DNA of 64,000 bases from Terriglobia bacterium. GTDB taxonomy: Bacteria; Acidobacteriota; Terriglobia; 20CM-2-55-15. Location: contig CBDCKF010000001.1 in assembly GCA_965218085.1 (NCBI GenBank), positions 619,983 through 683,982 on the forward strand, given 5' to 3'. The position numbers and the translations under genes are program-made. The notes beneath the pieces were generated by a model. That model saw only the letters and a list, made by a program, of their open reading frames with translations. It did no database searches and was not told the origin of the DNA. Of the stretch, positions 46,391 through 47,302 are shown piece by piece; position 1 is the first letter of the stretch, and every line of letters starts with the position of its first letter.

Positions 46391-47302
46391 GTGTCTCTGG
46401 GGTTCGAGCAGAGAATCGTAGGTCAATTCGAAACATTCTACGTGACCGACACGCAGCCGTTAGGGGACCTGTTCAAAGCAAAAGCGGTGGACCCAGACAC
46501 TCAGATCCTGGTAACCGAAACGGTTGCCGGAAAGCTTGCGCTCTTGACCGACCAGATGTCGTACCATCATATTGCACAACGCAACGCCAACGGCCAGGAC
46601 TGGATGGCGACGTTCTGAGTGATCTGCAATACCGGGGTCAGTTTGACCCCGACAATCGACGGCAAGCTGCAGCACTTCGTAGTCCACGGCGTCTACGATG
46701 GCCTGTCCATAATGGCAGACACCGAGACCTTAACTCTGTGGAATCACATCACAGGCGAGGCTGTCTATGGTGAGTCAGTGAGTCATCGTCTCCCGATATC
46801 GAACCTGCTGCACATGAATGTAGAACAGGTGTTGGAGATGGATCCGAACATCGAAATCGCGATCTCCTCGTATCAAGGGCGGTTGATCGGCGGCGGACAG
46901 TACACCCCGGACAACACCGACGCGACTCTGTTCCCCTCGTTCACCGACACACTTGGTACTGAGGACAATCGGCGCCCCCGGATAAACAAGGGCCTGGGTG
47001 TCTGGACGGACCAGACGCATCGCTACTATTCACTCCACAGCATCCGTGAGAAGGGTGAGGCTCTTATCGATGAGCTCGACGGGCGGAACATCTTGATCTA
47101 CGTCGATCCGATTTCATCCACACCGGCGGCCCTCTACGTGGACGCCGCAGACGCCCACTTCGAAGGAAGGGAAATCCGTCTCGACAATGGATTTGTAGTT
47201 CGGGCAGGTGTCCTCGTTGGGCCAGACGGCGAATCCAGGACGGCGGAACGTCCGCTGCACATTACGAACCGGCGAACAACCGAGGTGTCCCGAGGACGTT
47301 GA
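46391..47302 (+). CDS. Second candidate selenoprotein of unknown family. In-frame TGA at 46616-46618 gives F-U-V-I-C (UxxC).
   Basis: ORFs 46391-46618 and 46619-47302 are in the same frame across one TGA. A hairpin CGGGGTC-AGTTT-GACCCCG starts 17 nt downstream. Confidence 0.4.
46633..46651 (+). promoter_or_regulatory. SECIS-like hairpin (7-bp stem, AGUUU loop) downstream of the second in-frame UGA
   Basis: Perfect inverted repeat CGGGGTC/GACCCCG. G-U in the apical loop. Confidence 0.35.

Follow-up and report, generated by a model that had tools for sequence, protein, structure and literature searches.

Introduction

Proteins that combine a DUF3179 domain with a UxxC/T motif, in which U stands for selenocysteine (Sec), already appear as a family of prokaryotic selenoproteins in a 2022 review (PMC9312934) and a 2026 review (PMC13188914), and the former credits the DUF3179 selenoprotein to Zhang & Gladyshev 2007 (PMC1976440). 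The 2026 review also presents, in its Fig. 2, a consensus model of the bacterial selenocysteine insertion sequence (bSECIS), with an apical loop of 3-9 nucleotides (nt) and an upper stem of 4-16 base pairs (bp). In this model one of the first two loop positions is a G, as a rule with G or U after it. The apical loop is 16-37 nt away from the UGA, and the minimum free energy (MFE) is -7.5 kcal/mol or lower (PMC13188914). According to the same review, selenoprotein genes are often grouped in operons, grdA-grdB and prdB-prdC being examples.

Here, we analyzed a DUF3179 gene located at positions 46391-47302 (+ strand) of a 64,000-nt stretch of DNA from a Terriglobia bacterium (contig CBDCKF010000001.1, positions 619,983 to 683,982), which will be called the window. 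An earlier reading of the letters of this stretch, referred to below as the sequence-only reading, had proposed a selenoprotein gene at this site. Our analysis agrees with this proposal: the internal TGA of 46391-47302 is almost certainly a selenocysteine codon and, with a probability of roughly 0.85, the region is a single gene for a 303-residue Sec-containing DUF3179 protein with a U76-V-I-C79 motif.

Results

One reading frame across an in-frame TGA

As the sequence-only reading had claimed, positions 46391-47302 form one reading frame on the + strand with a single internal stop, TGA 46616-46618, and translation of the region agrees with this. The codons around the stop read ...W-M-A-T-F-TGA-V-I-C-N-T-G, giving F-U-V-I-C, and the predicted peptide that spans the Sec is ...DWMATF-U-VICNTGVSLTPTIDGK. 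The N-terminal part (46391-46615, + strand), assigned from the reading frame and a Pfam match across the TGA, comprises 75 codons starting at GTG 46391 and carries the conserved sequence DQM-x-YHHIAQ...W-M-A-T-F. The UGA itself (46616-46618, + strand), read as selenocysteine U76, supplies the first residue of U-V-I-C, and the Sec partner in this UxxC motif is Cys79, encoded by TGC 46625-46627 (+ strand), three residues after the TGA, where the sequence-only reading had placed it. The first two bases of this cysteine codon (columns T13 and G14 of alignment A3) are invariant, and a Cys is present at the position in every translated locus. The C-terminal part (46619-47302, + strand) consists of 227 codons and the terminal TGA stop 47300-47302.

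In the list of open reading frames (ORFs) of the window, the gene appears as a 75-codon ORF followed by a 227-codon ORF, and the latter does begin at the codon after the TGA, GTG 46619, as had been noticed. The two halves are also separate proteins in the databases, P0117 (75 amino acids, aa) and P0001 (227 aa). P0001 is 100% identical to the C-terminal part, with its database start at the codon after the TGA. The same sequence of the DUF3179 locus was found in independent ENA and Logan assemblies, so that three assemblies agree.

Homologues carry a cysteine or a TGA at the same position

When the TGA is bridged, the protein matches the Pfam family DUF3179 (PF11376) with 60.4 bits against a cut-off of 27 (E = 2.4e-16), and the match covers residues 33-246, running across residue 76. 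NCBIfam has no model for the DUF3179 protein of the window, a PDB sequence search with the family profile gave no match, and Foldseek against PDB returned nothing significant. A search of a large protein collection yielded 105 relatives. The sequence-only reading had suggested looking for a cysteine at the U position of homologues and had considered that homologues might end there. We found that nine full-length homologues have a Cys exactly at this position (F-C-V-V-C-N-T-G), and that homologues continue past it. Approximately 88 of the 105 database homologues are annotated from at or just after the U position, which is the signature of an annotation split by a TGA.

Scanning genomes with alignment A2, one per species, gave 25 loci, of which 23 have TGA at the aligned codon and the other two, one from Bacteroidota (L024) and one from Acidimicrobiia (L026), have TGC. 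The TGA carriers include Terriglobia, Vicinamibacterales and other Acidobacteriota, Gammaproteobacteria and Gemmatimonadota, together with the cultured clostridial species Wukongibacter baidiensis and metagenome-assembled genomes of Verrucomicrobiae and Krumholzibacteriia, and the TGA-carrying loci span at least six phyla or classes. Conservation extends to both sides of the TGA, with 43-65% identity to the window over the 65 residues upstream (22 related loci) and 39-67% identity to homologues over the 218 residues downstream. In six loci (L005, L007, L012, L020, L021, and L022), the codon behind the TGA is CCC, CCG, GCG or GGG, thus no restart of translation is possible there.

A conserved hairpin directly behind the TGA

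The sequence-only reading had described a perfect 7-bp hairpin 17 nt after the UGA. This hairpin is present, and with an additional A-U pair it extends from 7 to 8 bp. The resulting bacterial SECIS-type hairpin (46633-46651, + strand; -14.6 kcal/mol) pairs CGGGGUCA (46633-46640) with UGACCCCG (46644-46651) around the apical loop GUU (46641-46643), and its core stem CGGGGUC/GACCCCG corresponds to 46633-46639 and 46645-46651. It starts 17 nt past the U of the UGA and 14 nt past the A. All four elements of the bSECIS model are found in the window hairpin: a loop of 3 nt (or 5), a stem of 8 bp (or 7), the loop G, a UGA-to-loop distance of 22 nt (46619-46640), and an MFE of -14.6 kcal/mol. The Rfam search gave no family match in 45400-47600 even at E = 10, which is uninformative either way for this hairpin.

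A hairpin occurs at the matching position in all 23 TGA forms, with energies from -7.5 to -14.9 kcal/mol (mean -11.3). The loops of these hairpins are GUU, GUA, GUC, GGU, GGA, GGUCU or CGUGC, so each of the 23 has a G at loop position one or two, with U or G after it. The distance from the UGA to the apical loop is the same as in the window in the 21 hairpins with a 3-nt loop, and is one nt shorter in the two with 5-nt loops (L021 and L027). A comparable hairpin is absent from six of the seven Cys forms, in which the corresponding segments fold into different shapes with energies between -0.9 and -7.2 kcal/mol. The seventh, the closest Cys form (L028, protein P0002, codon TGT), has an 8-bp stem at the SECIS position (-11.1 kcal/mol) with a loop, CCA, that lacks a G. 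This stem looks like a fossil SECIS that stayed behind after replacement of Sec by Cys.

Covariation was assessed in an ungapped alignment of 19 distinct sequences, with 500 shuffles and with the pairing partner slid by 1-3 columns as controls. In this alignment, 95.4% of the hairpin cells are paired, compared to 30-55% in the slid controls. Compensatory double changes occur in four of the eight pairs, and cells changed on both sides number 27, against 8.7 ± 3.3 in shuffled alignments; none of the 500 shuffles reached the observed values. Synonymous third positions covary, giving the combinations GGG/ACC, GGA/GUU, and GGC/GUG. Moreover, residues +7 and +10 swap between Val...Thr, Thr...Val, and Val...Ile. 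Exchanging Val (GUN) and Thr (ACN) across the hairpin alters the protein, from G-V-S-L-T-P to G-T-S-L-V-P, and keeps the pairing, as the first two bases of GUN are complementary to those of ACN. The covariation at third positions and the Val/Thr swaps show that the hairpin is under selection at the RNA level, beyond protein conservation. The claim that its absence from related genomes would have undermined can therefore stand, since the hairpin is retained with compensatory changes in 23 TGA-containing relatives.

Weighing of the alternative explanations

Every database annotates P0117 and P0001 separately, as would be correct if the TGA were a genuine stop and 46391-46618 and 46619-47302 were either two genes or one gene split by a nonsense mutation and restarting at GTG 46619, the codon that stands directly behind the TGA. 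Such a stop is, however, very improbable. The split recurs at the same codon in 23 genomes of several phyla, always at the first Cys of the CxxC of the relatives, the next codon frequently cannot act as a start codon, either half alone would be an incomplete Pfam domain since the domain runs across the TGA, and a covarying hairpin comes after it. A full-length protein would also be made if the UGA were read through without selenium, by a reassigned code (UGA = Trp or Gly), a suppressor tRNA or near-cognate decoding. No observation speaks specifically for this, and we consider it the least probable of the explanations. TGA terminates obg, polA, a GIDA-family gene, an aldehyde dehydrogenase gene (Aldedh), and the DUF3179 gene itself; it is the terminator of at least eight well-conserved window genes, none of which has an internal TGA, and among the 16 tabulated window genes only the DUF3179 gene and its upstream neighbour contain one. 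Since TGA is the ordinary stop of other genes in the window, a reassigned genetic code is excluded. In addition, the aligned residue in relatives is Cys rather than Trp or Gly, the hairpin fits the SelB-type SECIS model including the loop G, and the carriers include lineages with the standard code. What does weigh against a selenoprotein gene is of several kinds. The start codon is GTG, and the GGAG 16 nt upstream of it is poorly spaced. Judged from the window sequence alone, the hairpin stands out only mildly (z = -1.9, with 9 of 200 shuffles folding as well), and the 81-nt segment around it is not unusual (z = -0.16), thus the case for a SECIS rests on the genome comparison. No selA, selB, selD or tRNA-Sec was detected in the 64-kb window with ARAGORN, Rfam, and a Pfam search of 20 large ORFs. 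As far as the two reviews show, there is no experimental evidence of Sec insertion for any DUF3179 protein.

The other counterpoints concern the state of the window copy, and they bear on a third explanation, in which a rearrangement stripped an ancestral DUF3179 selenoprotein gene of its 3' end, signal peptide, and redoxin partner, leaving a decaying, non-functional remnant that keeps the Sec codon and SECIS and whose UGA is decoded or not. Homology to the family ends at 47272 (tblastn), and the nearly invariant ending F-T-R-W-Y-G-F..T-F-P..E.. has no counterpart. In its place are nine unrelated C-terminal codons, RTTEVSRGR (47273-47299, + strand), at the divergence in alignment A1. The WYGF..TFP motif is at least 90% conserved in the 105 homologues and corresponds to a confidently predicted strand and helix (residues 315-327) in the AlphaFold model of a homologue. 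It was not found in any frame, no frameshift restores the ending, and self-blastn detected neither a repeat nor a second intron copy at the breakpoint. A complete domain including the C-terminal motif is therefore not present, which concerns the intactness of the gene and not its descent from the family. The window copy also lacks a signal peptide, unlike its closest relatives L003 and L004, and the frame extends no further than 17 codons upstream of GTG 46391. The gene for a TlpA-like redoxin, which in these two relatives follows the DUF3179 gene, is absent downstream and survives only as a fragment 23 kb away, on the strand opposite to the DUF3179 gene. This remnant comprises the last 55 codons (23161-23325, - strand; tblastn 62-76% identity to the redoxins of L003, L004, L005, and L010) and lies directly after a group II intron (approximately 23330-25390, - strand), recognized by the Rfam family group-II-D1D4-3 at 25212-25390 and by a reverse transcriptase/maturase ORF at 23459-24733. 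The redoxin codons that are missing do not lie 5' of the intron, which thus marks the boundary of a rearrangement rather than having simply inserted into the gene. The remnant has a TGA at a conserved Cys codon (23221-23223; K-I-TGA-T-Q-H), which we rejected as a third Sec codon, as it lies in a 55-codon fragment and all nine homologues examined have Cys and none has TGA at this site. There is no hairpin behind it (-7.3 kcal/mol, z = +0.85), and the TGA probably reflects a nonsense mutation of the gene fragment. The ancestral DUF3179-redoxin unit is thus evidently broken in the lineage of the window, and the window copy may be a cytoplasmic variant or a pseudogene in the making, the product of which may be non-functional. 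Nonetheless, decay strikes us as possible rather than likely. The 303 codons are open without a frameshift or an extra stop, the Sec codon, Cys79, and the perfect 8-bp SECIS are intact, signal-less forms occur elsewhere in the family (P0049, P0059, P0094, P0095, and L022), and the sequence is the same in three assemblies. The open frame together with the perfect SECIS suggests that any such damage is recent.

The upstream neighbour and other features of the window

The gene upstream of the DUF3179 gene is a PrdB/GrdB-family selenoprotein gene (44988-46292, + strand), which ends 99 nt before the DUF3179 start. It matches Pfam GRDB and, across its U, the NCBIfam model PrdB TIGR04483 (E = 1.1e-40, below the equivalog cut-off). 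No Pfam family matched its C-terminal part (45570-46289, 240 aa). The sequence-only reading had stated that this neighbour, too, has a TGA, a cysteine three residues on, and a hairpin, and all three were found: an in-frame TGA at 45567-45569, the motif T-U-P-A-C, and a stem-loop of -24.2 kcal/mol directly behind the TGA. Like the DUF3179 gene, it needs Sec decoding, which lends indirect support to a Sec machinery in the host. No terminator-like site was found on the + strand between the two genes, and their co-transcription is plausible. Adjacency of a PrdB-like and a DUF3179 gene is confined to the same-species contigs L001 and L002, and was not seen in any of the other 25 loci searched with flanks of approximately 6 kb, which rules out a conserved selenoprotein operon of these two genes. 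Of the small selenoprotein locus that had been suggested, the selenoprotein nature of the neighbour thus stands, and the locus as a unit does not: the pairing looks like a local juxtaposition.

A short tRNA-like stretch, GCGGGTTCGAATCCCCG, that resembles a T-arm lies close behind the truncated DUF3179 gene, at approximately 47390-47420 on the - strand. As a candidate selC it was rejected, with no ARAGORN or Rfam call and a T-stem of only three pairs. A tRNA-associated integration site may have left it behind.

Scattered through the window are at least six small paralogues of the DUF6152 family (PF19649), at 21774-22193, 58278-58679, and 61920-62327 on the + strand, and at 29048-29431, 33103-33615, and 36916-37317 on the - strand, and a DUF6152 fragment is located at 25796-25942 (- strand). 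These genes often lie beside larger ORFs without a Pfam match, e.g. 35723-36901, 37494-38477, and 22254-23093, and these three ORFs resemble one another, as indicated by L003-derived tblastn matches. Several ORFs of 325-434 aa gave no Pfam match at E = 0.001, found in 35723-39738 and at 50973-52190, 60551-61855, and 62569-63546.

Discussion

How the DUF3179 gene of the window would be translated can be outlined by analogy with the established bacterial pathway, from which SelB binding, Sec insertion at UGA 46616-46618, and the presence of selA, selB, selC, and selD in the genome are inferred. The mRNA would form the hairpin 46633-46651, 14 nt behind the UGA, and SelB carrying GTP and Sec-tRNA(Sec) would bind its apical G-U loop. 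Sec would then be delivered when the UGA enters the A site, and translation would continue without a stop, yielding a 303-residue protein with a U76-x-x-C79 centre.

Relatives of the protein give an indirect indication of its function. Most of them have an N-terminal signal peptide, and in seven loci (L003, L004, L005, L012, L017, L018, and L028) the DUF3179 gene is directly followed by a gene for a TlpA-like AhpC/TSA-Redoxin protein with a signal peptide, carrying the motif F-W-A-T-W-C-x-P-C. The seven comprise the closest Terriglobia relatives, four Gammaproteobacteria, and one Cys form (L028), so the redoxin gene accompanies both Sec and Cys forms of DUF3179. In L010 and L023 such a gene is nearby, not directly adjoining. 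Based on the motif, the signal peptides, and the neighbour gene, the U-x-x-C pair is most likely a redox-active selenol/thiol centre that forms a selenylsulfide and is recycled by the TlpA-like redoxin. Metal binding is an alternative role for the pair. The redox role is favoured because most relatives carry a signal peptide and are followed by a gene for a secreted redoxin that could recycle the centre. The recurrent TlpA-like neighbour offers the first usable functional lead for DUF3179, pointing to thiol/selenol redox chemistry.

A more far-reaching model, which we put forward as speculative and regard as doubtful, is that DUF3179 is a normally exported redox or metal centre derived from a Rieske fold. 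Here, Sec/Cys-x-x-Cys, perhaps together with the conserved YHH approximately 16 residues upstream, would replace the cluster-binding loops of the Rieske fold, the downstream TlpA-like redoxin would recycle the centre, and the window copy, truncated, signal-less and adjacent to a PrdB-like selenoprotein gene, would be a re-wired cytoplasmic offshoot. Were this true, the Sec-dominated clade of Acidobacteriota, Gammaproteobacteria, and Gemmatimonadota would represent a widespread, uncharacterised periplasmic selenoenzyme system.

Reading the UGA as Sec has a practical consequence for annotation, since it repairs gene models: the window gene and approximately 85% of its relatives are split, and the window halves (75 aa and 227 aa) are 'hypothetical' in every database copy. 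Among soil and sediment lineages such as Acidobacteriota, the Sec form is the predominant one in this DUF3179 clade. The hairpin, with its Val/Thr swap, is a clean example of a recoding signal that shapes protein sequence. This DUF3179 gene leaves the current understanding of selenocysteine encoding as it was.

Compared with known systems, the window gene is a member of the already catalogued DUF3179 selenoprotein family, in a copy that is probably damaged, and not the founder of a new one. It shares with the listed members the Pfam domain, Sec in place of the first Cys of CxxC, and a SECIS-type stem-loop in the coding region just behind the UGA, and it differs from them in lacking the conserved C-terminus and the signal peptide. 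Two types of DUF3179 protein can be distinguished in our data, a YHH...F-U-V-V-C-N-[TS]-G clade and a canonical type with T-[YW]-C-P-L-C (L026 and L027). Published examples of the family are MBW1804167.1 and MDJ0986319.1. The hairpin resembles bacterial SECIS elements, as represented by E. coli fdhF and fdnG and by the bSECISearch model, in being a stem-loop within the ORF and in its loop distance, loop G-U, stem length, and MFE. It differs in its very small loop (3 nt, or 5 nt when the A-U pair is open) and in having no bulged U like that of fdhF, and we detected no conserved lower stem that would extend back to the UGA. With the UxxC selenoproteins of the thioredoxin fold (the Sec forms of Trx, Grx, DsbA-like, and Prx-like proteins), the protein has in common the UxxC motif, the interchange of Sec and Cys, and a likely redox role, whereas a thioredoxin fold was not found around the UxxC of DUF3179. 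Finally, the GrdB/PrdB selenoprotein B family, to which the upstream neighbour belongs, is unrelated to DUF3179 in sequence, but both have a UxxC motif with a SECIS directly behind the UGA.
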